Shown: positions 1 through 53,680, counted from the first letter of the stretch. The stretch: DNA of 55,048 nt from a virus (IMGVR_UViG_2541047910_000003:1-55048); one strand, 5' to 3'. Notes: generated from the sequence alone by a model not told the origin. Made by a program: numbers and translations.

Positions 1-525
1 ATGAGTTTTCTTTTGCCGTGTGGTGGAATTATGAATAATATAGATTTATTAAAAACTATAACAAACTACAAAAAAATCAAAAATCCGGCATACCCGGCTC
101 AGGAGAGTCTGTTAATACACTTATATATTAGAGTAAATGACAAAATCCAGAGTATTATAGAAAATGAATTGAGCGAGTATAGAATAAACACTTCAACATT
201 TATGGTGTTAGTTTCATTATATATGTCTGATGATTATTGTCAGTCCCCTTCTGATATTTACAAGGAGTTACAATTCTCCAAAACAAACATCACACACATC
301 ATAGACAAATTAGAAAAAAAGAATATTGCCAAAAGAATTAATAATAAAAACGATCGTCGAAGCAAAAGTATTTGCTTAACCCCTGACGGAGTTACACTTG
401 CTCAAAAACTAATAAACACTCAAAATGTAATGCTAAAGAAAATCTGGAGCGGGCTATCAGATGATGAAATGAAAACATTTGAACTCGCCAACAAAAAATT
501 ATTATCAAACCTTAATGTTAATTGA
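1..525 (+). CDS. MarR-family winged-HTH transcriptional regulator
   Basis: 174-aa ORF. The core SPSDIYKELQFSKTNITHIIDKLEKKNIAKRINNKNDRRSKSICLTPDG is typical of a MarR wHTH. Very AT-rich. The ORF touches the window edge, so the 5' end is uncertain (internal Met at nt 31). Confidence 0.6.
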   Translation: MSFLLPCGGIMNNIDLLKTITNYKKIKNPAYPAQESLLIHLYIRVNDKIQSIIENELSEYRINTSTFMVLVSLYMSDDYCQSPSDIYKELQFSKTNITHIIDKLEKKNIAKRINNKNDRRSKSICLTPDGVTLAQKLINTQNVMLKKIWSGLSDDEMKTFELANKKLLSNLNVN

Positions 526-959: not shown

Positions 960-1298
960 TTATAATTTGTTACTGTGCCACTCAAGGGCAATATCTTTGA
1001 AGGTGTTGTTTAACTGCGTTTCCCGGGCAATCTTTTCCTCTCGCTTCACTTCCATCAGATCGATTCCCCCAGAGATACCTCTTTTAGCTTCTTCAAGTTT
1101 TGCAGGAGCATCAGCTAAGGTGACCTCAGGATACACACCTAGTGCTAACAGCTTCTCTTTACCAGCTACACGATACTTGAGACGCCAATATTCTCCTCCA
1201 CCAGGTTTTACCAGGAGGTACAGACCACCACCATCAGCCAACTTGTAAGCCTTCTCTTTTGGCTTGGCAGTGTCTATTTGACGGGCATTGAGTTTCAC
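960..1298 (-). pseudogene. N-terminal fragment of a P4/CP4-57-type tyrosine integrase
   Basis: MKLNARQIDTAKPKEKAYKLADGGGLYLLVKPGGGEYWRLKYRVAGKEKLLALGVYPEVTLADA is the arm-binding N-domain (DUF4102-like) of P4-type integrases. It stops after 112 codons with no catalytic domain downstream. It lies 150 bp from a thrW 3'-end copy. Confidence 0.75.
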
Positions 1299-1450: not shown

Positions 1451-1471
1451 AATGGTGCCGATAATAGGAGT
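1451..1471. repeat. 21-bp direct copy of the thrW 3' end (att junction)
   Basis: aatggtgccgataataggagt is identical to 13991-14011 and 53603-53623. Confidence 0.9.
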
Positions 1472-1614
1472 AAAACACTCGATTAATCTCGTGTTAATGC
1501 CATCACCTACGACCATTACTAATTGATTGAATCTTATAGAAAAAATCATCATTTTCTATGCGTTACAATCAATTTTCACATTACAAACGCTCCGACACTT
1601 TAGCCGGGGAGTTT

Positions 1615-2892
1615 ATGAGATACAAGCCCAATCAATACATAATCTGTGATTCTTACGGTAACTACTATTTGAGGATCACATTGCCTGTGTATATGCAGCC
1701 CTTTTTTGAAGGAAAAAGGACGTTTGTCAGGAGTCTACATACAAGTAATCTTCGTGTTGCACGTAGAAAGCGTGATCAGATTGCAGATGAATACCATTGC
1801 TTACGGGAGAGTGTCGCTCCTGTAAACAGCACAATAGAGAACACGCTGGAACTGTTACGAAGTAAGGCTAAATACGCCAAAACAGCTACCAGAATGCAAG
1901 ATACAGCGTCTTCGTGTCCGTCATTGCTTAAAATTCTTGAAATCTACCTGACAATTAACAGCACGAAGAAGAAGCCAGCCACTTTAGCTAAGGCAAGAAA
2001 AGCGGTAGAGATGTTTCTCTCCTACCGTAAAAAGCCTGATATTGCATTGCAAGATGTGAGCCGCACCACTGTTACAGGCTGGATTGAACACATGCAAAAA
2101 ACCCTTTCACAACAATCAATTGCAAATTATATCAGCCCAATGGCCCAGCTATGGGAGTTAGCTTCATCACGTTACCACGATGCGCCAGAAAGGGCGCTCT
2201 CCCCCTGGCGAGGGCATAGGCTTGATGTGGCACAAAGTAGAGAGAGCTACGAGGCATTTTCTAACAAAGAGCTATTGCAGGTGTTGCAAGTATTTTCCGG
2301 TAATTCAGCAGAAAACAAAGAAATGATGGCTTTGTGTCTTATCGGTTTATATACAGGTATGCGGATCAATGAGATAGCAAGTCTCACAATAGACGATGTG
2401 AAAGAGATCGAAGGTGTGCTGTGTTTTGAAATCACACAGGGAAAAACGAAAGCTGCGGCACGTGTTGTGCCTGTGCATAGCCTTATCACTCCGTTGGTGT
2501 TGTCGCTGCGTGAAAAGCCTCATAATGGCTTTTTGTTCTATCACGCCAGCATTACAGAGCGTGCTGATGGTAAACGCTCTACGTGGCACACGCAGAGATT
2601 TACAAGAGCTAAACGAAAGGCTTTAGGGGAAAAGGGAACAGAAAGGAAAGTGTTTCATTCTCTGAGACACGGAGTAGCACAGCTTCTTGATCGAAATCAA
2701 ATTCCAGAAGACAGGATCGCCCTTCTCCTGGGCCATACACGCGGCAATACAGAGACATTCCGCACATATAGCAAGAATGCAGCTTCTCCAGTAGAGCTTA
2801 AAAACTATATTGAGCTTCTACGCTACCCTGAAATAGAGAAAGGCTTATCAATCAATAAAAAATCAAATTTAAGGCGTAAAACAACGCCATAG
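1615..2892 (+). CDS. int: tyrosine recombinase/integrase
   Basis: C-terminal catalytic motifs are present: GMRINEIASL (Arg), HSLRHGVAQLL (H-x-x-R), LLGH, and a late Tyr (FRTYSK). The ORF is open from 1558, but GGGGAG precedes the Met at 1615. Confidence 0.85.
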   Translation: MRYKPNQYIICDSYGNYYLRITLPVYMQPFFEGKRTFVRSLHTSNLRVARRKRDQIADEYHCLRESVAPVNSTIENTLELLRSKAKYAKTATRMQDTASSCPSLLKILEIYLTINSTKKKPATLAKARKAVEMFLSYRKKPDIALQDVSRTTVTGWIEHMQKTLSQQSIANYISPMAQLWELASSRYHDAPERALSPWRGHRLDVAQSRESYEAFSNKELLQVLQVFSGNSAENKEMMALCLIGLYTGMRINEIASLTIDDVKEIEGVLCFEITQGKTKAAARVVPVHSLITPLVLSLREKPHNGFLFYHASITERADGKRSTWHTQRFTRAKRKALGEKGTERKVFHSLRHGVAQLLDRNQIPEDRIALLLGHTRGNTETFRTYSKNAASPVELKNYIELLRYPEIEKGLSINKKSNLRRKTTP

Positions 2893-2973
2893 ACGCAATA
2901 AAGAGGCTTCAACATAGATTGGTAGCCTCTTTTATAATTACATCGTTACAGAGCGTTTTAGAGGCGTTTACGG

Positions 2974-3687
2974 CTATTCCTGTTTAAAGGCAGGCGTAAT
3001 AGTGTCTTCACCTTCACTACTTGATCTTTCAGCGTTAACACGTTTCTTCAAATTCGCCCCGATGTTCTTAGATGGCTGTGTTTTGATAGCTACAGTGTTT
3101 ACAGTGCCATAAGACACTAATCTGATCTGTTCAAATTCCAAATCAAATACCAGGGATTCGCTTGCCTCTTCTGTGTATTCGATGCCTGTTAAAACAACGT
3201 TCTCAAAAGTTTTATTTTCTGTAACAAGAAGAAAAGGCTGTCTACTGTCCATAATCTGATTCAGATAATCTATAGCCAATGATCTTCTGTTCCCGTTCAC
3301 CCCTGCACTCTTTAACAAGCCAGGATCGCTTTTAATCGGTGTTTCAGTGATCCTTCCTTTAAGAGAAAACTTATTGTTTTTAATTTGAACGTGATCAGAC
3401 ACAGTAGCACCATTCTCTACGGGGTAGCTTGTGACATCTGCCGAACGTCTCACGTTCACATCGTCTACACTGTCAAAGGCCAGCGCCATATAATTTTCAT
3501 AAACGTCATTGCCAGAAGATGCCAAGCCACTGGTAACAATAGCAAACCCATTTTCTCCTTTTGTTTTATTGGCTTTGCTATTTTCGTTTTTTGTAGAGTT
3601 TATATCTTGTTCTGCTTTGTAAACAGCCTGAACGTGTTGTTCTGGAGTATTTGCTGCACGTATGGTTAAAATTCCCGCCGTTGCCAT
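2974..3687 (-). CDS. putative phage tail/baseplate protein (Dit-like)
   Basis: 237 aa. The motif SADVTSYPVENGATVSDHVQIKNNKFSLKGRIT plus a C-terminal beta-rich region recalls Dit-like tail proteins. It sits directly downstream of the tape-measure-like gene. Assignment is from pattern memory only. Confidence 0.4.
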   Translation of the reverse strand: MATAGILTIRAANTPEQHVQAVYKAEQDINSTKNENSKANKTKGENGFAIVTSGLASSGNDVYENYMALAFDSVDDVNVRRSADVTSYPVENGATVSDHVQIKNNKFSLKGRITETPIKSDPGLLKSAGVNGNRRSLAIDYLNQIMDSRQPFLLVTENKTFENVVLTGIEYTEEASESLVFDLEFEQIRLVSYGTVNTVAIKTQPSKNIGANLKKRVNAERSSSEGEDTITPAFKQE

Positions 3688-3717
3688 AATAATTTCCTTG
3701 TAATGTTATGGCGGGAA

Positions 3718-5553
3718 TTACCCGCCGTTGGATTGTCCTGATAAGCTGGTTAATGTTAATGATTTCAAGAAGCTATCCCGACTTGCTCTCGCTGTAAAAT
3801 CCACATAATCGCTTAATCTTGATGTGTCAGAATTAATAGTAAGAGGAACCTCTGTTACCACTTCAAATGTAGGATTCAGATTAAACACAGGAGATAAATT
3901 ATAAGCTGGAGTTGTCATTGTAAGATTATTTAAAGCACCCTGTTTGAGATTGGTTATCGGTGCTTCGCTGACTGACATTTTTACATCTGACACAGAAGAA
4001 GCATTATCATCGAAAAGCCATCCCTTAATTGTGTTAAAAAGAGAATGACTATTATCAGGTGTAGTTGTTGCAGTTCCAGCGCCTTTATATTGGTCAGGAA
4101 CGAGATTAGAAAGATGCTGTTTCATCCCTTCATTGCTTAATGGCGGTGCATCTCCCATATTTTTCTGAATAGCATCTGTCTTATCATCATTACGATTAAA
4201 CCAGTTTACAATCTTCATAATGGCCTCAAAGAGACTTCCTGTAGCTTCTCCCAGCTTCGTAAAATACGGAGTGAGATTAGAAAGGTTTTTCATAAACTCT
4301 TCCGTTACTTTTGGATCGAGAGATTTCATAAAGCCGTCTACAAATGCTACTTGTCTTGCATCAGAAAGCTGTGAAAGCTGTCTGTTTAGTTCTCTGAATT
4401 TAACAATAGATTCTTGCTGTGTTTCTGTTAGCCATTTTCCAGAGGCTTTTTGCTGATTAATACTTTCTTGTACATCTTTAACGGAACGTTGCCAATATTT
4501 TGATGTAAGCATCAAATCATCGCCCAGGTCTTCTAAACGTTGTCCAATTTGGGAGTCTGAAAACCCTTTTTTCATCATTCCATTAACAGCCTTAGAAATT
4601 AATCCGGCTGGATTATCAGCAAATTTTTTAAGGTCGCTCTTGTTAATAACACCGATGTTTAGAAGTTCATTAATAGCGTTATCACCGCCTTTCCACTCGC
4701 CGCCTTTACCAGTTTTTTTATCGACTACATATTCAGCTTCACTATAGGATTTTGCGGCACGTTCCCTAACATCTTTCATCTGATCCAGGTATTTCCTAGC
4801 CCCTTGATCACCCATCATAGAGTCAACGCCGTTTCTATACGCCCATTCTGTAATATTATACATCTGGTTAACGTCTACACCGCCAAGCCTTGCACGTTGG
4901 ATTAATTCTCCTTGTGTTTCAGCATTAGCGAAGCTATTAGCCATAAACTCGGCGGTTTTACTAACAGCCATCACGCCAGCAGCAGCCGTAGCGCCTCCAA
5001 ATAACAGAGCGCCCATAGTGGCGGAATTCCCTGATCCTCCCTTAACGGGGGCAAATTGAGCTTTTCTGTTGCCATTAATCTTACGTTGTTGTTGTTGTAA
5101 GCGTTTCATTTGGCTATTCATACGTGCAAGCGAGATAGCGCCTTGTTCGTATTGTTTCGCTATCTCTCTAGCCTGTGCAATAGCTTTATATTGTTCCGCT
5201 ACAGAGAGGCGGTGCATTGCACTTATAGAGCTTGACACATCAAGGAGTTTTAATTCTGCTTTCTCTTTACGTGCTGCTATTTGTGCCTGTTGCCTTGCCT
5301 GTGCTCTTGCTGCGGCAGCTTGTGCTCTTTGATTCTGTTTTTCGTTTTTCGCTTTCTGTTGAGCAATCTTATCTACTTCACTTTGTGCTTTCTTATAGCC
5401 TTTAGTGACATTATCAAATCTTAATTTAGCTGGCTTGATGTTCTCTGCGAATTCCTTTAAGCCTGTAATAGAGTCTTTCGCTTTTTTCAAGCTGTCTTTA
5501 TCTACACTAAATGTTACTGTGTTCTTAATTTTAGAAGTGTTAATTTCTAACAT
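3718..5553 (-). CDS. tape-measure-like or internal virion protein
   Basis: 611 aa. It has an N-terminal Q/A/K-rich coiled coil (QRAQAAAARAQARQQAQIAARKEKAE) and a hydrophobic Gly/Ala segment (GALLFGGATAAAGVMAV). The remainder is long and helical. No enzymatic motif seen. Confidence 0.5.
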   Translation of the reverse strand: MLEINTSKIKNTVTFSVDKDSLKKAKDSITGLKEFAENIKPAKLRFDNVTKGYKKAQSEVDKIAQQKAKNEKQNQRAQAAAARAQARQQAQIAARKEKAELKLLDVSSSISAMHRLSVAEQYKAIAQAREIAKQYEQGAISLARMNSQMKRLQQQQRKINGNRKAQFAPVKGGSGNSATMGALLFGGATAAAGVMAVSKTAEFMANSFANAETQGELIQRARLGGVDVNQMYNITEWAYRNGVDSMMGDQGARKYLDQMKDVRERAAKSYSEAEYVVDKKTGKGGEWKGGDNAINELLNIGVINKSDLKKFADNPAGLISKAVNGMMKKGFSDSQIGQRLEDLGDDLMLTSKYWQRSVKDVQESINQQKASGKWLTETQQESIVKFRELNRQLSQLSDARQVAFVDGFMKSLDPKVTEEFMKNLSNLTPYFTKLGEATGSLFEAIMKIVNWFNRNDDKTDAIQKNMGDAPPLSNEGMKQHLSNLVPDQYKGAGTATTTPDNSHSLFNTIKGWLFDDNASSVSDVKMSVSEAPITNLKQGALNNLTMTTPAYNLSPVFNLNPTFEVVTEVPLTINSDTSRLSDYVDFTARASRDSFLKSLTLTSLSGQSNGG

Positions 5554-5772
5554 TTAAAACCCCCCCTTATTAATCATTTTACCACCTTCTTTACTTAAGA
5601 AATGGTGTAGAGCCTGATCAATACTCTCGTTTAGTCTGAACATACGGGCTTTTACGCCTTCATATGGAACATCTAAGAGAGAACAGAGATATTTCAGATT
5701 TAACAAGCCTCTAGAATCATTAGCATCTAAATGTACGTGTACACCATTTTTTGATTTCAAAATCACTTCCAT
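5554..5772 (-). CDS. hypothetical protein
   Basis: 72-aa ORF that abuts the start of the 611-aa gene. It is the first gene after the capsid-gene terminator. Confidence 0.4.
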   Translation of the reverse strand: MEVILKSKNGVHVHLDANDSRGLLNLKYLCSLLDVPYEGVKARMFRLNESIDQALHHFLSKEGGKMINKGGF

Positions 5773-5794
5773 ATTTTAATCACCTCTCAAAATT

Positions 5795-5838
5795 TAAAAA
5801 TAAATAAAAAAAGGCGAAGCGTGAATACACGCCACGCC
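5795..5838 (-). terminator. intrinsic terminator after the capsid gene
   Basis: Stem ggcgaagcgtg/cacgccacgcc (internal mismatch), followed on the minus strand by TTTTTTATTTATTTTT. Confidence 0.65.
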
Positions 5839-5857
5839 TCTATTACACGTTAAAATA

Positions 5858-6886
5858 TTATTTAACAGTGATTTGAACGGAGAAGCCTACACCGTGGTTT
5901 ACAACCATCTGGCTATTCTCTGTAACAACGTTAACAGCATCACCACGAGAAGATTCATAGCTGTAACTATACACCTCAGCAGGAGCGGCATTAATCAGTT
6001 CAAAGGTGCTGGAAGCCGCCCCATAGATGGCCTGGTAGACGTTAGAGAATTTAGCGAATTTAGGCACAGCTACAGCGTCTGCGGTCATATGTGCAAGGTG
6101 TAGCGGATCTACCAGTTTAACAACATCAATGTTAGTTCCTGGAATAGTGAACGCTGTCACTCCTGGTAGCAGGTCACGACGCTGATACACAACGTTCCCT
6201 TCTTCCAGTGGGCTTACATACTGGAATGCGTTTGCCATACCAGCAGAGAATCGAATTGCAGAGAAGGCTTCCGGCTTACAGAAAACAACAATACGCTCTA
6301 CAGCAGCCGCCTGGCTTTGTGCTTTTTCGATAATGTCAGTAGCAATCTGATCAAATTCTTTAAAAATCTTCGTGGTGTCAGTGCTGGAAGCGTTCACAGT
6401 GGCTTTCATAGCTGATACGTTAAACAGCTTGCCCCACTCAATTAACACATCATCAGTTTTAGGCGTGTAAGTTTTGCCAGAGAACAAAGAAGCAGCCAAT
6501 ACGCTCTCTTTTGTACGCTGGAATGCAACATTGTGTTTAGCAACATATTCCGCGTAGATATCAGTGAGTGTTTCCTGGAAATCAGTGCCAGGTTTACGTT
6601 TGCCTTGAACATCAGAAGGACGGATCACATCTTCACGCAGGAAGTAAGGGATCTCGATCAGCCATTCTTTACCTTGTTCTCGCTTAGTAACATTGTGTTC
6701 AGAAGAGAAACGAGAGGTTTCTTTGTTGAACAGAGATTCGTTGCTTTCGACAAGCTGGGAAACAGCTACTTTATGAGATGTAACCCCTACAGAATCCGTA
6801 AAATCAAGGGTAGAAAGCAGATAATTTCTAGTGCTATGCGCAGAGAACAGAGGAGCTAAATCAACGTAATCATTACCTAGAATCAT
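5858..6886 (-). CDS. major capsid protein, lambda gpE-like (HK97 fold)
   Basis: 342 aa, the same length class as lambda gpE (341 aa). Colinear resemblances include the C-terminal GFSVQITVK versus lambda EFVSVQLA. It is preceded by a small decoration-like gene, as in the lambda D-E order. Confidence 0.6.
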   Translation of the reverse strand: MILGNDYVDLAPLFSAHSTRNYLLSTLDFTDSVGVTSHKVAVSQLVESNESLFNKETSRFSSEHNVTKREQGKEWLIEIPYFLREDVIRPSDVQGKRKPGTDFQETLTDIYAEYVAKHNVAFQRTKESVLAASLFSGKTYTPKTDDVLIEWGKLFNVSAMKATVNASSTDTTKIFKEFDQIATDIIEKAQSQAAAVERIVVFCKPEAFSAIRFSAGMANAFQYVSPLEEGNVVYQRRDLLPGVTAFTIPGTNIDVVKLVDPLHLAHMTADAVAVPKFAKFSNVYQAIYGAASSTFELINAAPAEVYSYSYESSRGDAVNVVTENSQMVVNHGVGFSVQITVK

Positions 6887-6904
6887 TTATTATTATTCCT
6901 TTTA

Positions 6905-7267
6905 TTAAGAAGTGAAAACAGAATGGAACCCTTCAAGCTGGAAGCCTTTTTTAATTAATGCTGTTTTTGCTGCTTCACTTACAGCATTCAGGGCATCAGC
7001 TTTAATGCATACAAGCCCAGCATTGCTACGTAAAACATCTACAGGCTTGTTGTCTCCAGCCGTTACAAATTCACTCATAACAACATAGATATCATCTCCT
7101 GATACATATTTAGCGCCCGTGCTGGTGATCAAGTCGCCGCACTCAACATCAGCAGGAAGAGAAGCAAAAACCTTGCTTTCTACAGAGGCAAACGGATCAG
7201 TACAATAACTTACAATATCTGTGAAAGTCTTTCTAACTGGAAACAGAGTGTCTAAATCAATAATCAT
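6905..7267 (-). CDS. putative head decoration/cement protein (DUF2190-like)
   Basis: 120 aa, immediately upstream of the capsid gene. The pattern GDLITSTGAKYVSGDDIYVVMSEFVTAGDNKPVDVL is reminiscent of DUF2190-type proteins. Confidence 0.4.
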   Translation of the reverse strand: MIIDLDTLFPVRKTFTDIVSYCTDPFASVESKVFASLPADVECGDLITSTGAKYVSGDDIYVVMSEFVTAGDNKPVDVLRSNAGLVCIKADALNAVSEAAKTALIKKGFQLEGFHSVFTS

Positions 7268-7476
7268 TTAGTAATCTCCTTAGCTTTTAATTTGATTAAT
7301 TCATTAATGGAAGGTGTAGACGGAGAAGAAGGAGAAAAATATTTTTCAACACATCGTTCTACGTCCTCTACAGAACACCCAGCGTATTTAGCTACCATTT
7401 CGGTAATTTGTGGATTAATTTTCAGCATTTCATCTTTATACTTGATGATTTGCTCTTTATCATTTAAGAACAACAT
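7264..7476 (-). CDS. hypothetical protein
   Basis: 70-aa ORF that overlaps the next gene by 4 nt. It is the first gene of the capsid operon. Confidence 0.4.
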   Translation of the reverse strand: MLFLNDKEQIIKYKDEMLKINPQITEMVAKYAGCSVEDVERCVEKYFSPSSPSTPSINELIKLKAKEITK

Positions 7477-7535
7477 TTATATAAACCTTGTTACCTTGTT
7501 TAAAGTAAGAAATACAACTTTTAAGTTGCATAACG

Positions 7536-7569
7536 GGCAAAATAAAAGGCAGCATTTAAAGCCGCCTTT
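7536..7569 (-). terminator. intrinsic terminator between the early-like and capsid operons
   Basis: Stem aaaggcagc/gccgccttt, followed on the minus strand by TTTTATTTTG. Confidence 0.55.
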
Positions 7570-7806
7570 GTAATTACCCTATGTTATGCACACTCCAAGA
7601 TGTATGCATAACAAAGGAAAAAAGAGGTATAATGACACAGTATTACTTAAGGAGGAGAAGCGGGGAGCGGAGATTTTACTCCCCTTTAACGACAAGAAGA
7701 ATTTTTAATATCGAACCAATAAAGGAAAAATAATAACCCTATATAATTATATTAACATACAATATATGAAATGTCAAGATATTTTACAACTTTTTTGTTG
7801 CTTTTT

Positions 7807-8172
7807 TTATTCTTCTGTGATAGTAGCGCCTAAGCGTTGAGCTAGTTCAACAAGTCCATCTCCTACATAGCGAACATCAGAGTCGATATCTTCTATCCAG
7901 TTTGATAGCTCCCATAGCTGAGAGGCTGTCAGGTATGCGTTCTCACGCTTACAGAGCATCTCTACACGCTTAGAGAGGTGCTCAAAGGCATTCACAGCTA
8001 AATCCCAGTGTTTAAACGCCTCATTTAGTGCCGCTGGCGTGTTTTCTTTGTATGCTTCAAGTTCAGCGCGGTTTAAAGGCAGGAGGTAATCATCCTCATA
8101 ATAATTAATTAGTGAGTAAATTGTGTCATACGTGTTTTTGTTCATATTAAAAGTCTCCATAGTGATCAGCAT
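7807..8172 (-). CDS. hypothetical protein
   Basis: 121-aa acidic helical ORF in an operon with the upstream genes. Confidence 0.4.
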   Translation of the reverse strand: MLITMETFNMNKNTYDTIYSLINYYEDDYLLPLNRAELEAYKENTPAALNEAFKHWDLAVNAFEHLSKRVEMLCKRENAYLTASQLWELSNWIEDIDSDVRYVGDGLVELAQRLGATITEE

Positions 8173-8557
8173 TATCTAAAATTTGAAAGTCTGGAACTAA
8201 ATTATTTAGGCCATTGGTGGCGAGATAACCAACGTAGTGGTTATAGTCTTCAAATCCTAAAATCTGGTATTTGCGTAAATCAGAGCTATCAACAATATAC
8301 TCTTTTCTTTTTCTAGGTTTCCAGAATACGCCAGGTGTTGAAGATAAGATTTCTTGTAAGGCGTTAAATTCATCTCCACAAGGCACAGAGGGAGAATGTT
8401 CTATGATCTCTGTTTTCCATTCGCCAGGGGCGCTATTATGCTTGGTGAGCGTAACTAGCTCTTTAAAGTCTTTGCGTCTTAGAATAGATTTAGGTTTACT
8501 TAGAAGAGAAGCTGAATCACCGATTTTCTTAACAACGTTGTTTTTTCTTTTTGCCAT
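8147..8557 (-). CDS. hypothetical protein
   Basis: 136-aa ORF with a basic N-terminus (MAKRKNNVVKK). Confidence 0.4.
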   Translation of the reverse strand: MAKRKNNVVKKIGDSASLLSKPKSILRRKDFKELVTLTKHNSAPGEWKTEIIEHSPSVPCGDEFNALQEILSSTPGVFWKPRKRKEYIVDSSDLRKYQILGFEDYNHYVGYLATNGLNNLVPDFQILDNADHYGDF

Positions 8558-8686
8558 TTATTTTTCCTTTTCTTTTAAAGGAAAACACCCCGAAATATGC
8601 TTCTAACGTGAGAAAGAACAATAACCAATACATAGCTACTATCATAATAATGTTTTCCTTTTATATTTTAATTACATAGAGAGATT

Positions 8687-8965
8687 TTAGAGAGTGGAAT
8701 AGATGAATTCTATTTCTTTATCTAGTCTTTTGAGATTGAATGTAGAGAAAGATAATTCTTTAATCTCTATAACACCGAAATTTGATAGCTGTTTCAGCCA
8801 GAATTTTAAACCAGCTTCAGAGCACCCTGCTCGATGTAACACATCGCTATATTTTAGCGGTGTTGGCTTTCCTTTATAGAGGTAAGCAAGTGTCTCGTAG
8901 ATGCGTTTTCCTGTGTCATTACACTGAATTCTGTCTACTTGATTTTTTACTAAATATTGAATCAT
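8687..8965 (-). CDS. small winged-HTH-like protein
   Basis: 92 aa. SDVLHRAGCSEAGLKFWLKQLSNFGVIEIK resembles a wHTH. Confidence 0.4.
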   Translation of the reverse strand: MIQYLVKNQVDRIQCNDTGKRIYETLAYLYKGKPTPLKYSDVLHRAGCSEAGLKFWLKQLSNFGVIEIKELSFSTFNLKRLDKEIEFIYSTL

Positions 8966-8976
8966 AACCCTCCTTA

Positions 8977-9708
8977 TTAAAATGGAATATCAAAGTCGTC
9001 ATATACATTTGGGTAATGCTTAGAAAAATATGCCTCAATACCATTTGGTCGTTTTAGCCCGTATCTACAAGCTAGTGAATTTGCAAACTCAATAAATGAT
9101 GCTCCTCCTGTTCGTGTGTGTTTCTCCTGGATGATAAGAGAGGCAAAATTCTCTAACACATCCTCCTCATTATCATTAGCTACCTTTTCACTTGATGAAA
9201 CAGGTGTTTCTTCCGTCTCCCACGGCAAAGGCGCATCCCAATCATCAAGAACATCAAAAGAAGGCTGTTTATGGCCTTTAGGTTGTTCCTGTGCTTCTTC
9301 TGCCTCAGAAAGATCAGAGAGTGATGATTCTCCTGGGGGAGTAATATGTGCATCTGTAAATGGTAATGCTTTATAGAGTGATGTTTGACCGTCCCGTGCC
9401 TCTACAGAAAGAACTCCCATATCAACAAACATATTTATAATATTGCGAACCTGGCGATCACTAACCATTCCAATATTAGCTAATGTTTTTTGAGTAGCGT
9501 AACATTCTTGCCCTTGTTCATTGAATCCAGCTATATAGCTATAGATTTCAACGGCTGGCAGTGTAGCGGTGTATTCATTACCAGATGGTGAATACCATTT
9601 TTTAAACATCTTCAACCATTGCTCAACAACTACATATTTTTGTTTACCATCTTTCTGATTTAGACATTTGGCTTTCGCTTCGGCAATTGTTTTGATATTT
9701 TTGATCAT
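8977..9708 (-). CDS. putative replication-initiation/origin-binding protein with an SSB-like C-terminal tip
   Basis: 243 aa. N-terminal wHTH (QKTLANIGMVSDRQVRNIINMFVDMGVLSV), an acidic linker, and a C-terminus ending ...VYDDFDIPF. Confidence 0.45.
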   Translation of the reverse strand: MIKNIKTIAEAKAKCLNQKDGKQKYVVVEQWLKMFKKWYSPSGNEYTATLPAVEIYSYIAGFNEQGQECYATQKTLANIGMVSDRQVRNIINMFVDMGVLSVEARDGQTSLYKALPFTDAHITPPGESSLSDLSEAEEAQEQPKGHKQPSFDVLDDWDAPLPWETEETPVSSSEKVANDNEEDVLENFASLIIQEKHTRTGGASFIEFANSLACRYGLKRPNGIEAYFSKHYPNVYDDFDIPF

Positions 9709-9832
9709 TTAGTTCCTCCTTTGTAAGGACTGTAATTAGTAGTTCATTAACAAGTTTTGGAATTGATTTCCCTTCTGCCTTTGCGCGATTTAACAACGCG
9801 TTATAAGTTGCAGAATCAAAATTAATATTCAT
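9644..9832 (-). CDS. ribbon-helix-helix (CopG/Arc-like) protein
   Basis: MNINFDSATYNALLNRAKAEGKSIPKLVNELL fits a beta-strand plus two-helix RHH pattern. The 3' end overlaps the next ORF. Confidence 0.5.
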   Translation of the reverse strand: MNINFDSATYNALLNRAKAEGKSIPKLVNELLITVLTKEELNDQKYQNNCRSESQMSKSERW

Positions 9833-9855
9833 TTGGTTTTCTCCTTCTCCTGTTA

Positions 9856-10038
9856 TTATTCTTTCTCTGCTTCTTTCTTACGCAGTTCATCAATAATCTT
9901 GAGTGCTTCATTGAAGCAAGCTGCTCGCTCTGGATAACCTCGACTCCTTGCCATATTACGATTCATTACTACTTGGTGGCGTGTAAGCTCACCTTCTTTA
10001 AATGCCTGTACGACGTGTTCCGGTGTAAACCATTTCAT
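9856..10038 (-). CDS. hypothetical protein (first gene of the leftward operon)
   Basis: 60-aa ORF with an AAGGAG RBS upstream. Confidence 0.45.
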   Translation of the reverse strand: MKWFTPEHVVQAFKEGELTRHQVVMNRNMARSRGYPERAACFNEALKIIDELRKKEAEKE

Positions 10039-10149
10039 AAAAACTCCTTATTCAGTTAAAAGAAAAAACACCTTGCAAGCCTGACGGCTTCAAAGTGCAT
10101 TGATTTTGATTATTTAGAGAAGAATGTTTTTCTGTCCCTCTAATACCTA

Positions 10150-10177
10150 TTATTACATATAAAGAAACATTTGTCAA
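10150..10177 (-). promoter_or_regulatory. sigma70-like promoter for the 10038-to-7807 operon
   Basis: On the minus strand: TTGACA, 16 nt, TAATAA. The -35 is at 10172-10177 and the -10 at 10150-10155. Confidence 0.55.
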
Positions 10178-10811
10178 TACCCTTTTCGAAAAAAATCGAT
10201 CTTTTTCAGCATGTTATAATTTGTCTTAGCAATTCGTGCTCTTCTGTGTAGTGCTATTCTTCATTATTGTCTAAAACGCTCTAAAACGCGTTCTAACGAA
10301 GTTTTGATAAAAGCAATACATTCTCTTATGTAGAGGCTATTTATCTCGTCAGAGGCTTATTTAAGGGGCTTATTTTGTATTTGTTAGGTATATGAAAAGG
10401 TGATGGTAGATATAAAACAGAGAGTCACTTTATAAAACGTTCTGTAAAGCCCTGTAGTGAGCTTATATATGTAGGCAATGCGTTTCCATTCCCTACCCTG
10501 CTTAATGCTGTTAGAGAAGCATTTAGACCCCTTATTTTTAATTACCTAAAGTATCCTCTATACATCTCTGTTATGAAACACCTCTGAATCCTTCATAAAA
10601 CACATTATGACGCAAAGAACACCTTTTCTAAGGTGATTCCCTTCCTGAATGCTGTTTCTTGCGTCAGAGAGCTACATAGAGCTTATAAAGCTATTATTAA
10701 TAATAAAGTAGATAAAGTAAGTAAGATAAGTAAGAAGATTAACTAAGATAGATAAGATTAATAAGATCAGAATTCTCTTTCGGTGTCGCCTCTGGCTTTT
10801 CCACCGAAAAC

Positions 10812-10969
10812 AATTACACGACTACAGAATGTAGGAAGTGGAATTGTATTGAGGCTTAGTGAAATTACACGAGGAAAGCAGAGTGTAATTGAGCTTTAGC
10901 CGCTCTCTCTTCGAGTAATTACACAACTACAGAGAATAACGAGAGTTATTAAATGTAGGAAGTGGAATT
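10812..10969. repeat. repeat cluster (AATTACAC boxes plus two exact 18-mers)
   Basis: AATTACAC at 10812, 10863 and 10917, and inverted at 10883. aatgtaggaagtggaatt is exact at 10828-10845 and 10952-10969. Confidence 0.8.
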
Positions 10970-11239
10970 AAGAGGTAGAGAGATAGAGTTAACACATAAG
11001 CAATCAGTATGATTGGTTAGGTGATTACTCTTCTGCGCACAGCGCAATAGTATTTCTTCGTGGGCGTTACCGCCAACGATAGTTACACGAAGAAAGTAAC
11101 GCTTTGCTTTCGGTGTGAGCGGAACGGGCCAGCCAACGTAGCCCAAAGGTAGCGGAGTAAGGCTGCTTGCCAGAGAGTGAAGCTAACGCCGGAAGGCAAA
11201 AAGATCATATATATATAGTATAAAGAATATTATTTATAT

Positions 11240-11295
11240 TATTTAATTATAGTATTTAATTATAGTATTTAATTATAGTATTTAATTATAGTATT
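11240..11295. repeat. four perfect tandem AT-rich 13-mers (DNA-unwinding-element-like)
   Basis: tatttaattatag occurs four times head-to-tail (11240-11291) plus a partial fifth copy. Confidence 0.9.
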
Positions 11296-11298
11296 GGT

Positions 11299-11398
11299 GG
11301 AACTCATTTCCTAGGTAGGTAGGAACTCATTTCCTAAGTAGGTAGGAAACCACTTCCTAGGTTACTTCCTAAATAGATCGGAAATCATTTCCTAGGTG
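11299..11398. repeat. iteron array A (about 23-bp units)
   Basis: ggaactcatttcctaggtaggta, ggaactcatttcctaagtaggta, ggaaaccacttcctaggtta and ggaaatcatttcctaggtg are directly repeated. Confidence 0.85.
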
Positions 11399-11413
11399 TT
11401 ATTTATACTTATC

Positions 11414-11471
11414 GGGTATCAGTTTTGATAGGGGTATCAGACTTGATAGGGGTAACAGAATTCTGTGGGGG
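11414..11471. repeat. iteron array B (18-bp units)
   Basis: gggtatcagttttgatag, gggtatcagacttgatag, then gggtaacagaattctgtggggg. Confidence 0.8.
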
Positions 11472-12142
11472 TAGCTCACAGTGACCTACCGTTACTACCA
11501 ACTTTCTTACAGAGAGCATTTCAGATAGCTGAATGTAACCTCTCGTTACATCCATTTGTCACATAGCACTCTGTGTAATGCCTTTCTATGTGTGTGCCAT
11601 AATCCCCCTATATTCCCTGTGTAAATCATAGAATAATGCTCTCTATTCCCTGTGTAATTCCATACTAAAAATTCAATGAAAAAGTAGCTTAAAAGTGCAA
11701 TTCTCACTTTCTTCACTTTTACATCACTTTCGCAAAGCCTTGTGTAATGCGGCTTACAGCGCACTATCAGAAATTGTTGGCTAAAAATTGTTCTGCTTGT
11801 TTCTTAATGAGTTTTCTTGTTTGTGCAAATTTTAAAATTTATTTTGTTTTTACAGCCTTATTTCGTGTAATGCGTGGCATAGCAAGCCCTTTTCTTGTGT
11901 TGTCAAGACATTTGGCAACGTTCAAACATCTGTTTAGAAATGCCAAATTGTTGATCTAACAAATAAACCTGTATAAACAGAACACCATTTAATCTATTCC
12001 CCTGTGTATCCATTAGGCATACCAAATGAATACATCTAAATCGTGTAATATTCCGTACCTATAAGGCTTGAAACAGACAAAATGAATACGATATACTCAT
12101 TTGCATTGAAGTAGTGCCAAATCGATACATTAAGAGGATTTT

Positions 12143-12682
12143 ATGAGCAATATCGGTTATAAGCGTGTGAGCACTGTAGATCAGAACACTGATCGCCAGC
12201 TTGCAGGAGTAACGCTTGATAAAGTCTTTGAAGATAAGCTGTCAGGTAAAGACACTAACCGTCCAGGATTGCAGGCGTGTTTATCCTATCTGAGAGAAGG
12301 CGACACCTTACACGTCCACTCTCTTGATCGTTTAGGGCGTAACACCTTAGACATTCTGGAGTTAATCAAACAATTGAATGATCGAGGTGTAATTGTTCGC
12401 TTTCACAAAGAAGGAATCATTGCTGACATTACAAGCGCGATGGGAAAGATGATGCTTACGATGTTGTCGGCAGTTGCAACGTGTGAACGTGAACTGATGT
12501 TAGAGCGTAAACGAGAAGCGCAAGCCGTCAATCCTACAAAGCGTGGTAAAGGGAAGGCAGTAGATAGGGAAGGTATAAAGAAAGCCCTTTCCGCTGGCGT
12601 GTCAGTGCGTAAAACCGCCGAGAGCTTTAATGTTGCTCCTTCAACGGTGCAACGTATCAAGAAGGAAGAAGAGGAGGCGTAA
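12143..12682 (+). CDS. serine recombinase (resolvase/invertase family)
   Basis: GYKRVSTVDQNTDRQ contains the catalytic Ser motif. LDRLGRN is present and a C-terminal HTH (VRKTAESFNVAPSTVQRI) follows. 179 aa, the same domain order as Tn3/gamma-delta resolvase. Confidence 0.85.
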   Translation: MSNIGYKRVSTVDQNTDRQLAGVTLDKVFEDKLSGKDTNRPGLQACLSYLREGDTLHVHSLDRLGRNTLDILELIKQLNDRGVIVRFHKEGIIADITSAMGKMMLTMLSAVATCERELMLERKREAQAVNPTKRGKGKAVDREGIKKALSAGVSVRKTAESFNVAPSTVQRIKKEEEEA

Positions 12683-12699
12683 TGCCTCCTTGATATTTG
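12673..12699 (+). terminator. terminator after the resolvase gene
   Basis: ggaggc-gtaat-gcctcc followed by ttgatattt. Confidence 0.5.
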
Positions 12700-13009
12700 G
12701 GGATTCTGGATTTTCCAGATCGGGGGGCGCTGATCTTCGCGTTAAACATTGATCACGTTTGCGCCGATTTCAGATAAAAAGGCAGCTATTAAGCAATACG
12801 TAACTTTTACAATTAGTGAAATTATCTAAAACACAAGTTATATAGATGAGAAAATGAAATATTATCTTGAACAAATCAAACAAAACAACACATCATCTTG
12901 TTGACACCATGCAAAGTGAATAGTAAGCTATTATATGTGAAAATTTGCACATTGCATGCAATAAAAAATAAATGATACCTTGTTGTTGTTAAATCAATAG
13001 GGGGTATCT

Positions 13010-13168
13010 ATGCGCTTTATCTTATCCATTTTAAAAACCTGCAGAACCACAATTACTTTAGCTGTAATTGTTACCATCATATACCTCATCTATTTTACCC
13101 CTCGAGATAAAATCGATTCACTAGCGATCATCGTTCATGCAATGGCTACATTAACTAAAAAACTTTAA
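13010..13168 (+). CDS. small hydrophobic membrane peptide (52 aa)
   Basis: Hand translation gives MRFILSILKTCRTTITLAVIVTIIYLIYFTPRDKIDSLAIIVHAMATLTKKL. A GGGGG RBS lies upstream. A promoter (TTGACA, 17 nt, TAAGCT) is at 12901-12929. Too short for the ORF track. Confidence 0.4.
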   Translation: MRFILSILKTCRTTITLAVIVTIIYLIYFTPRDKIDSLAIIVHAMATLTKKL

Positions 13169-13234
13169 TAATTTCACTATCAGGCGCACAAACACATCTT
13201 TGATTGCTGGATGTGTTATGCGCCTACTGGTGAT

Positions 13235-13387
13235 TCAATCCTTAAGCCATTTCAACTCACTAAGGAGTTTTCTTTCTTCGTTCTCTCGCTGTTTACGCTC
13301 TAGCCAGGCTTTTCCCTCTGGCGTAGACAGGAACTTACGAGCGTGAATCTTGCGGTTATTACGTTTTATAGCTGCAATGTTTTTCAT
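13235..13387 (-). CDS. small basic protein (50 aa)
   Basis: Hand translation gives MKNIAAIKRNNRKIHARKFLSTPEGKAWLERKQRENEERKLLSELKWLKD. It converges on the 52-aa ORF across a long hairpin (13183-13224). Confidence 0.35.
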   Translation of the reverse strand: MKNIAAIKRNNRKIHARKFLSTPEGKAWLERKQRENEERKLLSELKWLKD

Positions 13388-13990
13388 CGTGTTGCCTCTG
13401 TATTCATATGAAAATTAACAAGTTACATACTACACAGGGAGACTACGCATAAAACACAATACAAGTAAAGATACATTTTCAAGACAATAGGAGCCATAAA
13501 GCGCCTTTGATGGTTATACCAAAAAATAAGCGCCGTAGGCGTATCCACTAAAAGGGCTTTTTCACAAAAGCTATGAAGTCTTAGCAGTTCTTCTCTTATC
13601 AGGCACCCGTTGTACTCCGGTGGACGAAACCGTGCTAGAGCTTGATTCTTTCCCGATCAAGTTAGGTTTTGAAGAGGTGGGCTTTAATCCACTATTGCAC
13701 TTAAAACTCTTCCCATCATTTAGCCTGTTTATCCTCTGCAACGTCTCACGACGTGTGGCATCATTGGACACCGCGCCAGGTGTGGAACATCTTGCTAAGA
13801 GTTTTGGTAGAAGGTTTAGAGACGGTGGCACGTCTTCCAGCTTCAAAGGAACTTGTTACGAGGTTGAGCCTGGGAACTACTCGCCCATACGTGTTACACT
13901 ACCAAAGCCCATAACAACGTATAGGCGTTTGTAAGTGATAACAGAAGATACAATTTCTTAGAGAAGTTAAGCTAAGTTATTGATTTTCTT

Positions 13991-14038
13991 AATGGTGCCG
14001 ATAATAGGAGTCGAACCTACGACCTTCGCATTACGAAT
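13991..14038. repeat. 48-bp direct copy of the thrW 3' end (distal att junction of the P22-like prophage)
   Basis: Identical to 53603-53650. Its first 21 bp also equal 1451-1471. Confidence 0.95.
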
Positions 14039-37347: not shown

Positions 37348-37423
37348 TGGTGCTGGTTAACGGACTTGAACCGCTACCCATTCGCTTACAAGGCGACTGC
37401 TCTACCATTGGAGCTAAACCAGC
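37348..37423 (-). tRNA. tRNA-Thr (anticodon UGU)
   Basis: Hand fold: GCTGGTT-TA-GCTC-CAATGGTA-GAGC-A-GTCGC-CTTGTAA-GCGAA-TGGGT-AGCGG-TTCAAGT-CCGTT-AACCAGC-A-CCA. Confidence 0.8.
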
Positions 37424-37428
37424 ATATT

Positions 37429-37503
37429 TGGCGGGACAGCGTGGACTCGAACCACGATAAGAAGGTTAACAGCCTTCCGTAATGACCTTTATACGACTGA
37501 CCC
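37429..37503 (-). tRNA. tRNA-Asn (anticodon GUU), one acceptor-stem mismatch
   Basis: Hand fold: GGGTCAG...GAAGG-CTGTTAA-CCTTC-TTAT-CGTGG-TTCGAGT-CCACG-CTGTCCC-G-CCA. There is a T:T mismatch at 4:69 and a weak D-stem. Confidence 0.6.
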
Positions 37504-52205: not shown

Positions 52206-52553
52206 GTGGAAGAAGAAATCTTCACTCGTGAAGAGGCAGCATCGTATCTGAAGGTAGACAAAGGCACTATCACGCAGTGGATACGAAGTGGACGACTTCA
52301 GGCCGCAAAGATAAATCCAGATAAACCTAAAAGCCCATATCGCATTTGCAAGTCAGACTGCATTGCGGCGCTTAAGTCTGTAAGACACAATAGCGCGGTG
52401 AATGCGGTTGATGTGCAGGAGGTTAAAGCATGTCAATCAAACTACGCGGTGGCACGTGGCACTGTGATTTCGTCGCGCCAGATGGATCAAGAGTTAGACG
52501 CTCTCTTGAAACATCGGACAAAAGGCAAGCGCAAGAACTTCACGATCGTCTGA
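52206..52553 (+). CDS. xis: excisionase (HTH_17/MerR-like)
   Basis: FTREEAASYLKVDKGTITQWIRSGRLQAAKI is an excisionase-type HTH. Directly upstream of and overlapping int. Confidence 0.75.
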   Translation: MEEEIFTREEAASYLKVDKGTITQWIRSGRLQAAKINPDKPKSPYRICKSDCIAALKSVRHNSAVNAVDVQEVKACQSNYAVARGTVISSRQMDQELDALLKHRTKGKRKNFTIV

Positions 52554-53602: not shown

Positions 53603-53650
53603 AATGGTGCCGATAATAGGAGTCGAACCTACGACCTTCGCATTACGAAT
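53603..53650. repeat. 48-bp att core within and next to thrW
   Basis: Identical to 13991-14038. Confidence 0.95.
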
Positions 53651-53680
53651 GCGCTGCTCTACCAACTGAGCTATATCGGC
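53605..53680 (-). tRNA. thrW: tRNA-Thr (CGU), thrW
   Basis: The reverse complement reads GCCGATATAGCTCAGTTGGTAGAGCAGCGCATTCGTAATGCGAAGGTCGTAGGTTCGACTCCTATTATCGGCACCA. Adjacent to proA, as in E. coli. Confidence 0.95.

Follow-up and report, generated by a model that had tools for sequence, protein, structure and literature searches.

We analyzed a 55,048-nucleotide (nt) stretch of DNA, IMGVR_UViG_2541047910_000003:1-55048 (the window), in which positions 1472-13990 make up a discrete 12.5-kb unit that is integrated at the 3' end of the tRNA gene thrW and carries its own tyrosine integrase. Comparisons of its sequence indicate that this element is probably a satellite of large virulent myoviruses in the subfamily Stephanstirmvirinae, namely, phages resembling phi92 and phAPEC8 (Justusliebigvirus and Phapecoctavirus). 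The same conclusion was reached independently by Barth, Dunham, and Seed (2023, NAR Genom Bioinform, PMC10448857), whose Table S6 lists 224 putative satellites of Escherichia coli phages. The element is a member of the family described there, and this copy is a re-discovery.

Our reading builds on a small set of structural genes, which are encoded in two blocks on the minus strand:

2974-3687 (-): tail-tube initiator (Dit-like), 237 amino acids (aa); PF21821, 3.8e-29; homolog of phi92 gp135
3718-5553 (-): tape-measure protein, 611 aa; phrog_16051, 1.2e-53; homolog of phi92 gp134
5554-5772 (-): 72-aa open reading frame (ORF) directly upstream of the tape-measure gene; in the position of an 82-aa gene of phage phiWec188, by synteny only
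5816-5840 (-): intrinsic terminator past the capsid gene, predicted from sequence
5858-6886 (-): major capsid protein (Phage_cap_E), 342 aa; PF03864, 5.1e-15; ratio of nonsynonymous to synonymous substitution rates (dN/dS), 0.09-0.15; distant homolog of phi92 gp124
6905-7267 (-): 120-aa protein, candidate decoration protein; in the position of the decoration gene of the presumed helper (phi92 gp123)
7264-7476 (-): 70-aa ORF, first gene of the capsid operon; stop/start overlap with the 120-aa ORF

We compared these proteins with structures from phi92 and with the genome of phiWec188, a Phapecoctavirus that belongs with phi92 to the Stephanstirmvirinae. In the PDB, the tube initiator matched Phi92_gp135 (21vq_N; E = 3.6e-79), the tape measure matched Phi92_gp134 (21vq_V, 659 aa; E = 2.6e-39), and the capsid protein matched Phi92_gp124 (21uy_N; E = 3.3e-7) as well as 9zbi_A (3e-11). 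Identity to the phiWec188 proteins was 54% for the tube initiator and, over the full length, 26.5% for the tape measure and 22.6% for the capsid protein. When phages were searched by tblastn, the tube initiator was 61% identical to its counterpart in Justusliebigvirus and 57% in Phapecoctavirus, with identities no higher than 30% in phages of the Klebsiella, Raoultella, Salmonella, and rV5-like groups. Gene order points the same way. The phiWec188 genome encodes a decoration protein (130 aa) followed by the capsid protein and, further on, the 82-aa gene, the tape measure (651 aa), and the tube initiator (235 aa); the element repeats both blocks, as 120 aa-capsid and as 72 aa-tape measure (611 aa)-tube initiator (237 aa). 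By sequence, the structural proteins of the element are diverged homologs of phi92 gp124, gp134, and gp135, set out in the gene order of phiWec188.

The tape measure was found in every family member examined. The 70-aa ORF is kept across genera at 46-48% identity, and the 72-aa ORF has counterparts in other genera (52-54% identity) with no family match in Pfam, PHROG, PADLOC, or NCBIfam. For the 120-aa protein, whose homologs are confined to Enterobacterales, neither BLAST nor hhalign nor a PDB profile search returned similarity to the decoration protein gp123. Its AlphaFold2 model (pLDDT, 66.6) had as its top Foldseek match the capsid decoration chain of PhiTE (9cul_l), a weak match (E = 0.09; TM, 0.43). 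Taking gene position together with this one weak fold match, it is plausible that the protein is a decoration protein.

An initial annotation, made from the sequence alone, had proposed a three-gene unit of a 72-aa ORF, a 611-aa tape measure, and a 237-aa Dit-like protein, and this unit was recovered by our searches (phrog_16051; Dit_like, E = 4e-29). It had also proposed a capsid operon with a gpE-like capsid protein, a decoration-like protein, and its own terminator, of which the Phage_cap_E assignment and the terminator (5816-5840) stand, and the decoration label is reduced to gene position and the weak fold match. Its statement that terminase, portal, protease, and tail tube are missing held up: in no element ORF of at least 50 aa did Pfam or PHROG reveal a terminase, portal, protease, sheath, or tube.

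To the right of the structural genes lie the components of a putative replicon:

8977-9708 (-): replication initiator (Rep) candidate, 243 aa; PF13730 (HTH_36), 1.5e-5; PHROG replication-initiator families
9644-9832 (-): 62-aa ORF resembling ribbon-helix-helix (RHH) proteins, in the exchangeable module 9358-9835
11230-11459: origin-like region, with five AT-rich 13-mers (11230-11295), four iterons GGAANNCANTTCCTA (11299-11394), and 18-mers GGGTATCAGNNTTGATAG (11414-11459)

A comparison of 13 related loci revealed a mosaic. The backbone (1472-9357) is conserved, and the module at 9358-9835, which consists of the N-terminal winged helix-turn-helix (wHTH) domain of the 243-aa protein and the small RHH-like gene, is exchangeable. 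Beyond the module come a conserved noncoding stretch, a variable repeat block (11293-11480), and then cargo (12016-13236). Within the initiator, the N-terminal wHTH is variable and the C-terminal half is conserved; the N-terminal domain is HTH_36 in Pfam and is named "RepA_N" in PMC10448857. The iteron GGAANNCANTTCCTA was observed 4 times against an expectation of 0.05, and the four N-terminal types of Rep pair with four iteron types in 13/13 loci:

Rep type A: iteron GGAANNCANTTCCTA, 4 copies; the window and L004
Rep type B: iteron TAGYTCACWRTGACCTACCCCC, 2-5 copies; eight loci
Rep type C: CGTTAC-type repeats; L007
Rep type D: iteron TAACAGAATTCTGTGGGGGTG; L012 and L016

An iteron array with a matched Rep type is the sequence signature of an iteron origin with its cognate initiator. 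Some origins are composite: one locus (L010) combines a type-B Rep with complete arrays of both the A and the B iteron, and in the type-A origin of the window one relic copy each of the type-D and type-B iterons persists (11455-11492), which suggests shuffling by recombination between co-resident elements. The element contains no helicase, primase, or polymerase, and for this reason we infer that its replisome is borrowed. The leftward operon of RHH and wHTH proteins in the initial annotation was upheld as regards the operon and an HTH_36 initiator-like protein. The RHH label on the 62-aa ORF found no confirmation in Pfam and only weak regulator matches in PHROG.

A megablast comparison with 50,697 phage records returned just three short patches, all of them in Stephanstirmvirinae. 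The patch at 9353-9613, in the wHTH of Rep, was 96-97% identical at the nt level to Muut, Inny, Mt1B1_P17, and BI-EHEC; the patch at 9680-9846, in the RHH-like gene, was 99% identical at the nt level to PaulScherrer (bas60_0101) and VEcB; and the patch at 3579-3657, in the tube initiator, was 91% identical to EC_OE_11. As a side observation, records labeled "Campylobacter phage" (A150, A145, C3, A110a, B15, and C15; 135-151 kb) scored like Stephanstirmvirinae or rV5-like phages of E. coli, and their host labels look doubtful.

The Rep-like phage sequences belong to chimeric genes. Three proteins, muut_154, inny_184, and QNJ49226 (Mt1B1_P17), each carry two satellite-type wHTH domains and a MUG113/T5orf172 nuclease-like domain. 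In muut_154 (332 aa), two HTH_36 domains are joined to a C-terminal MUG113/T5orf172 domain, and this C terminus is homologous to T5-like "homing endonucleases" and to GIY-YIG nucleases of Vibrio phages. The N terminus of the element's initiator is 91% identical in aa and 97% identical in nt to muut_154/inny_184, and the two binding domains of each chimera correspond to different Rep types:

inny_184: first wHTH, Rep type C (95%); second wHTH, Rep type A (91%)
QNJ49226 (Mt1B1_P17): first wHTH, Rep type D (82%); second wHTH, Rep type A (85%)
muut_154: first wHTH, a further type (45% to D); second wHTH, Rep type A (91%)

These chimeras share the architecture of Odn from phage ICP1, in which a RepA_N-like domain of the satellite PLE is fused to T5orf172 and which cuts the PLE origin at its iterons (PMC8263062); from their domains, they are nuclease-like. 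Odn of ICP1 carries one satellite-type binding domain, whereas the chimeras of E. coli phages carry two. In PMC10448857, Inny, Muut, and Mt1B1_P17 are likewise credited with odn homologs in the form of RepA_N-T5orf172 proteins, and modular RepA N termini that are mirrored in the phage nucleases are described.

The small regulator has a phage counterpart as well. The phage proteins muut_153 and inny_185 are 100% identical to a satellite RHH-like protein of 55 aa over 55 and 53 aligned residues, and bas60_0101 of PaulScherrer is 98% identical in aa to the 62-aa RHH-like protein of the window over 53 aligned residues. The corresponding genes lie at 2968-3153 in L003 (bas60_0101), 3684-3851 in L002 (muut_153), and 2504-2686 in L030 (inny_185). 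Those of Muut and Inny adjoin the chimera genes muut_154 and inny_184. PaulScherrer had no chimera gene in the early-gene locus that we examined and was not among the matches listed for muut_154. The captured RHH-like genes may be a second, nuclease-independent antisatellite measure that mimics the satellite regulator.

The boundaries of the element are defined by attachment (att) repeats:

1451-1471: tRNA-distal att repeat, an exact 21-nt copy of the thrW 3' end
1558-2892 (+): tyrosine integrase (DUF6538 + SAM-like + Phage_integrase); Pfam, 1.4e-17; phrog_1, 1.8e-33; dN/dS, 0.04-0.06
13991-14011: tRNA-proximal att repeat, continuing to ~14038 as a 48-nt partial copy of thrW

The exact 21-mer AATGGTGCCGATAATAGGAGT occurs three times in the window (1451-1471, 13991-14011, and 53603-53623), compared with 0 expected in shuffled sequences. 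By ARAGORN, the genuine tRNA-Thr(CGT) gene occupies 53605-53680 (minus strand), and its 3' end is the third copy of AATGGTGCCGATAATAGGAGT; because that copy sits in the gene, the att repeats derive from thrW. The exact thrW repeats at the ends and the tyrosine integrase just inside the left junction, both noted in the initial annotation, were therefore correct, the latter by Pfam as well as PHROG. Homologs of the integrase are annotated as 425 aa in RefSeq, and its true start may for this reason be an internal ATG.

The intact thrW gene is 39.6 kb from the element, and a P22-like prophage (14012-53602) lies between the intact gene and the partial copy. Read outward from the tRNA, the tandem array consists of the P22-like prophage, the 48-nt partial tRNA copy, the element, and the distal repeat. 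In other E. coli strains, the same element stands alone between thrW and the pao side with identical gene order. The P22-like prophage between this copy and intact thrW is what sets it apart from the elements of PMC10448857, and a search of the window for the alternative att_lysR site given there found none.

The P22-like prophage looks complete, with a P22 portal, a P22 coat, a tailspike head-binding domain, Terminase_3, and an integrase (52430-53590), and it carries genes for tRNA-Thr(TGT) and tRNA-Asn (37348-37503). As a helper or gene donor it was ruled out, with zero protein similarity to the element. Just beyond the distal att repeat, a truncated N terminus of a P4-type integrase (Arm-DNA-bind_3, 9e-24; 960-1298, minus strand) probably survives from an older thrW island, and a MarR-family gene occupies window positions 1-525.

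The element is conserved and under selection. Among 5,426 complete E. coli genomes, 776 matched it, and 213 held at least 80% of it at ~95% identity; a 201-nt probe across the element ends was found in 496 (~9%). Copies free of insertion sequences (IS) measure 12.3-12.75 kb. The best matches were CP027552 and CP027766 (100% coverage at 95.7% identity) and CP062871 (96% coverage). Homologs of the capsid and 120-aa proteins were found only in Enterobacterales, where they occur in E. coli, E. albertii, Citrobacter, Klebsiella, Enterobacter, Cronobacter, Kluyvera, Leclercia, Buttiauxella, Scandinavium, Serratia, and Sodalis. Across genera, the core consists of orf136, orf70, orf120, the capsid protein, orf72, and the tape measure, with an optional tube initiator and a varying integrase, and this set is kept in Buttiauxella, Kluyvera, Scandinavium, and Citrobacter. 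Pairwise dN/dS values of all core genes ranged from 0.04 to 0.29, which indicates purifying selection and therefore not a decaying prophage.

Two further groups of relatives were noted. A second E. coli subfamily (Logan contigs L020-L022) has a 74% identical capsid protein, a 633-aa tape measure, and a 218-aa tube initiator; its 406-aa integrase is just 33% identical, and it occupies another site, beside type III secretion (SpaO/FliP-like) genes. A 9.4-kb contig from a metagenome-assembled genome labeled "Bacillota bacterium" (L028; JAEWTL010000083.1) holds a copy of the E. coli type with a 73% identical capsid protein, and the Bacillota assignment is most likely binning contamination.

If the element is a satellite, its life cycle might run as follows. 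Infection by a phi92-like phage would trigger excision, and Rep would fire the iteron origin with a borrowed replisome. The capsid protein of the element, perhaps with the 120-aa and 70-aa proteins, would build a shell sized for ~12.5 kb on the portal, protease, and scaffold of the helper, and the helper terminase would fill that shell by headful or pac packaging. Helper tails containing the element's tape measure and tube initiator would complete the particle. Helper resources would be diverted and phage yield lowered, and phages would respond with nucleases aimed at the origin and by capturing the element's small regulator. At ~12.5 kb, the element is near P4 in size, which would account for the need of a distinct capsid protein, rather than a size-redirecting scaffold, in a satellite of a 150-kb phage. 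More tentatively, this may be the first satellite that gives a head shell and a tail core to chimeric particles of a virulent 150-kb helper and that faces two phage counter-measures: Odn-like nucleases with two binding domains (Rep types A, C, and D) and capture of the RHH-like regulator (98-100% identity; PaulScherrer, VEcB, Muut, and Inny), which would silence the satellite early operon.

Several observations weigh against a satellite, whose excision, replication, packaging, and transfer are predictions. The junction expected of a circular form (attP), ...TTGATTTTCTT-AATGGTGCCGATAATAGGAGT-AAAACACTCG..., was not found in metagenome contigs, viral contigs, or the 5,426 complete E. coli genomes. 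A 12,139-nt Logan contig (L017) that was considered as a circular form was rejected, as it is an integrated copy with both att sites. Matches in IMG/VR were prophage calls on isolate genomes, not virome particles, and are therefore silent on packaging. No pac/cos or small-terminase candidate was identified in the element, and a distant blastn search of the 50,697 phage records with window positions 7200-14000, in which pac/cos sites and iteron arrays were sought, returned just two exchanged patches and no other similarity to helper DNA. The capsid protein is only ~22% identical to that of the helper, and its fit with the helper portal and scaffold is therefore assumed; nuclease activity of the phage chimeras is predicted from domain content. 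There is also no clear reason for a satellite to have its own tape measure (611 aa, versus 651-659 aa in the helpers). The tail-core genes can hardly serve to set tail length, since the element's tape measure is just 40-48 residues shorter; compatibility, DNA delivery, and sabotage of helper tails are possible.

Some of these observations would suit a mobile antiphage defense island that is not packaged and that, amplified upon infection through its iteron origin, poisons phi92-like assembly in a dominant-negative fashion with divergent capsid, tape-measure, and tube-initiator decoys. So small a set of structural homologs could not build anything unaided, tail assembly begins with the tape measure and tube initiator, a pure defense element would select for Odn-like nucleases just as strongly, and neither the helper DNA comparison nor the attP searches of contigs and genomes gave a packaging signal or packaged form. 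We nevertheless consider such an island unlikely. The narrow size range of IS-free copies (12.3-12.75 kb) suggests a packaging constraint, and a complete, conserved capsid gene with its operon partners (dN/dS, ~0.1 across genera) exceeds what interference needs. Moreover, the spread of near-identical elements across many E. coli lineages and related genera needs a transfer route, and the element is without conjugation genes; PADLOC found no defense family.

Further explanations fared worse. The initial annotation had left a choice between a helper-dependent satellite and an integrated phage-plasmid. A plasmid-like replicon of the latter kind would persist as an episome through Rep and its iterons, use the serine recombinase as a multimer resolvase, and hold its structural genes as leftovers, a description that agrees with the Rep gene, the iteron origin with its AT-rich 13-mers, and a small recombinase of the resolvase type whose gene is immediately preceded by a dyad. 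It is very improbable, however, given that the attP junction was covered nowhere in the 5,426 genomes, that 932/934 end matches were chromosomal, that no partition or maintenance genes were found, that the virion set is incomplete, that about half of the loci lack the recombinase, and that the structural genes are under purifying selection. A satellite with its own shell and tail parts is the half of that choice favored by comparative evidence, and the phage-plasmid half is unsupported, with neither an attP form in the 5,426 genomes nor partition genes found. We give even less credence to a decayed remnant of a larger prophage that has retained a few head and tail genes. Integration at a tRNA gene beside a P22-like prophage and the truncated P4-type integrase at 960-1298 might suggest decay, but the gene set, order, and size recur in hundreds of genomes and several genera, the phage collection yielded no larger intact relative, the structural relatives are virulent phages of 145-151 kb rather than temperate ones, dN/dS is 0.04-0.29, and the neighboring prophage shows no similarity. 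The earlier rejection of a randomly decayed prophage agrees with this conserved set.

Reading the element as a satellite raises the question of its class. PLE of Vibrio cholerae, whose helper is ICP1, integrates via a large serine recombinase, remodels the ICP1 coat protein with the scaffold TcaP, and is not known to encode a capsid protein; TcaP, NixI, CapR, and others make up its defining gene set. The present element is similar in being an integrated island matched to a large virulent myovirus, with a modular initiator, cognate iterons, and no replisome of its own, and in being faced with a phage counter-weapon that fuses a satellite initiator DNA-binding domain to T5orf172 (PMC8263062). 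It differs in that no gene-level homology to PLE was detected, in that its integrase is a tyrosine recombinase and its serine recombinase a 179-aa accessory type of resolvase, and in that it encodes a tape measure and a tube initiator, which PLE is not known to do. By analogy, the element resembles PLE in working, not in membership.

Like the cf-PICIs, the element encodes its own capsid protein rather than just redirecting that of the helper. However, cf-PICIs have alpA, pri-rep, and a complete head module of the HK97 type (capsid, protease, portal, adaptors, and small terminase) and are not known to carry tail genes, whereas the sole head gene identified here is the Phage_cap_E capsid gene, plus the candidate decoration ORF, and tail-core genes are present. 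P4 has a genome of ~11.6 kb and a T=4 head. The element shares with P4-like satellites a similar size, integration at a tRNA gene in Enterobacteria, and presumably the need for a small capsid, but P4 uses the capsid protein of its temperate helper P2 and the element has its own capsid gene; sid, psu, delta, the alpha primase-helicase, and ash/alpA were absent from ORFs of at least 50 aa by Pfam and PHROG. Of the features of PICIs (alpA, pri-rep, a master repressor, and small terminase or redirection genes), the integrase alone is held in common, and PICMIs have a minimal content without capsid or tail genes, unlike an element with capsid, tape-measure, and tube-initiator genes. The initial annotation was thus right to exclude P4-like satellites, PICIs, cf-PICIs, PLEs, and PICMIs.

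Its broader claim that the element fits no known satellite class has to be withdrawn. Close full-length matches to a described family had been named there as the finding that would overturn the claim, and such matches exist in the family of PMC10448857. The implied novelty fails because that paper described the same family and because Table S6 lists the best-matching genomes (CP027552, CP027766, CP062871, and CP062865); the carrier strain E. coli Mt1B1 (CP028714) is also in that table. Sequences in Table S6 open with the junction sequence at window positions 1451-1610. The paper describes bacterial elements of ~13 kb with att sites, a tyrosine integrase beside tRNAs, Dec, a major capsid protein, a tape-measure protein, and a baseplate component, without the signature genes of cf-PICIs; a subset has a serine recombinase and a lysR att site. 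Inclusion there was based on at least 10 kb of homology to representative elements, which our element has. It is likewise bounded by att repeats beside a tRNA, with a tyrosine integrase near one boundary; it encodes capsid, tape-measure, and baseplate-type proteins but lacks terminase, protease, adaptors, and most tail genes; and the N terminus of its initiator is homologous to a domain of the phage RepA_N-T5orf172 proteins.

The satellite and the nucleases were predicted in PMC10448857. As far as its accessible parts go, regulator capture, iteron co-variation, and the purpose of the tail core are not addressed there. Our analysis adds the co-variation of iterons with Rep, the identification of the "baseplate" protein as a gp135 tube initiator, and the match of the tape measure to gp134, along with capture of the RHH-like regulator by phages, the cross-genus core, and a conserved, terminator-bearing leader of the capsid operon. 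In a literature search, we found no later paper linking these phages with satellites and no experimental follow-up; as far as that search reached, the family is still unnamed and known by prediction alone.

The remaining features of the element are as follows:

7545-7777 (-): predicted near-consensus sigma-70 promoter (7777 to 7749) followed by an intrinsic terminator (7569 to 7545), upstream of the capsid operon
7807-8172 (-): 121-aa ORF, no family match
8147-8557 (-): 136-aa ORF, no family match; member of the cross-genus core
8687-8965 (-): 92-aa ORF, found in some other genera
9856-10038 (-): 60-aa ORF that opens the leftward early operon; conserved in the family
10149-10177 (-): near-consensus sigma-70 promoter of the leftward operon, TTGACA-17-AATAAT with TG; 11/12 matches
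12143-12682 (+): serine recombinase, 179 aa; Resolvase PF00239, 9.6e-34; phrog_125, 6e-55
13010-13168 (+): 52-aa hydrophobic ORF, in the variable cargo region
13235-13387 (-): 50-aa basic ORF near the tRNA-proximal end; annotated in RefSeq homologs; 78-96% identity in L026 and L028

Searches of the small ORFs with PADLOC and NCBIfam gave no credible match. In the leader of the capsid operon, the terminator (7569 to 7545) comes ~180 nt past the promoter (7777 to 7749). Viewing the sequence upstream of the orf70 homolog in L017, L021, L024, L026, L027, and L029, we found a hairpin and T-run at this position in 5/5 more distant family members, with differing stems and a short palindrome next to them. 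The leader may be regulated by antitermination or may encode a putative small RNA of ~200 nt; an Rfam scan gave no credible match, the leader included.

Two noncoding features lie around the leftward genes. A 42-nt inverted repeat (2929-2970 versus 10272-10313; 76% complementary), with the core CTCTAAAACGC that also occurs in tandem at 10270-10289, flanks the entire leftward gene block, one arm lying beyond the final structural gene and the other ahead of the early promoter, and could be a binding site for a regulator. The ORF-poor region of 2.1 kb (10040-12140) contains arrays of 13-mer, 23-mer, and 18-mer repeats. Within it, ~900 nt at 10300-11230 are free of ORFs and 92-94% conserved among E. 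coli copies, with an exact 18-nt repeat AATGTAGGAAGTGGAATT (10828 and 10952) and several AATTACAC motifs. This stretch is a candidate packaging or regulatory region, and it had no similarity to helper genomes.

The cargo region (12016-13236) is replaced or absent in L007, L009, L011, L012, L015, and L016. The 2.1-kb repeat field and serine resolvase of the initial annotation are both present, with the qualification that the recombinase belongs to this variable cargo and is kept in only about half of the related loci. A 20-nt inverted repeat (11822-11841 and 12932-12951) surrounds the recombinase gene. The idea of an invertible segment is unsupported, because the orientation is the same in 6/6 related loci that bear the recombinase. 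Directly upstream of the gene, at 12078-12110, a dyad (AAATGAAT-N7-ACTCATTT) accompanied by recurring AAATGAATAC and AAATCG motifs resembles a crossover site of the res type, and multimer resolution would fit it better than integration. Small, very hydrophobic 52-aa ORFs beside the recombinase (window 13010-13168, plus strand; L007 3062-3220) have the C-terminal motif ..AIIxxAMAxLTKxL in common; they gave no family match and could be toxin-like or membrane peptides.

The main use of our finding is as a pointer to an under-studied system that has already been predicted in print and that is attractive for experiments. If confirmed, it would provide an E. coli model of satellite-phage conflict like that of PLE and ICP1. 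Phage therapy is a use under consideration for myoviruses resembling phi92 and phAPEC8, and the ends of the element occur in ~9% of complete E. coli genomes (496/5,426). If our reading is true, carrier strains could be partly protected from such phages, the host range of a phage would differ with or without the matching Odn-like nuclease, and the family would be the first satellite known to have its own tape measure.

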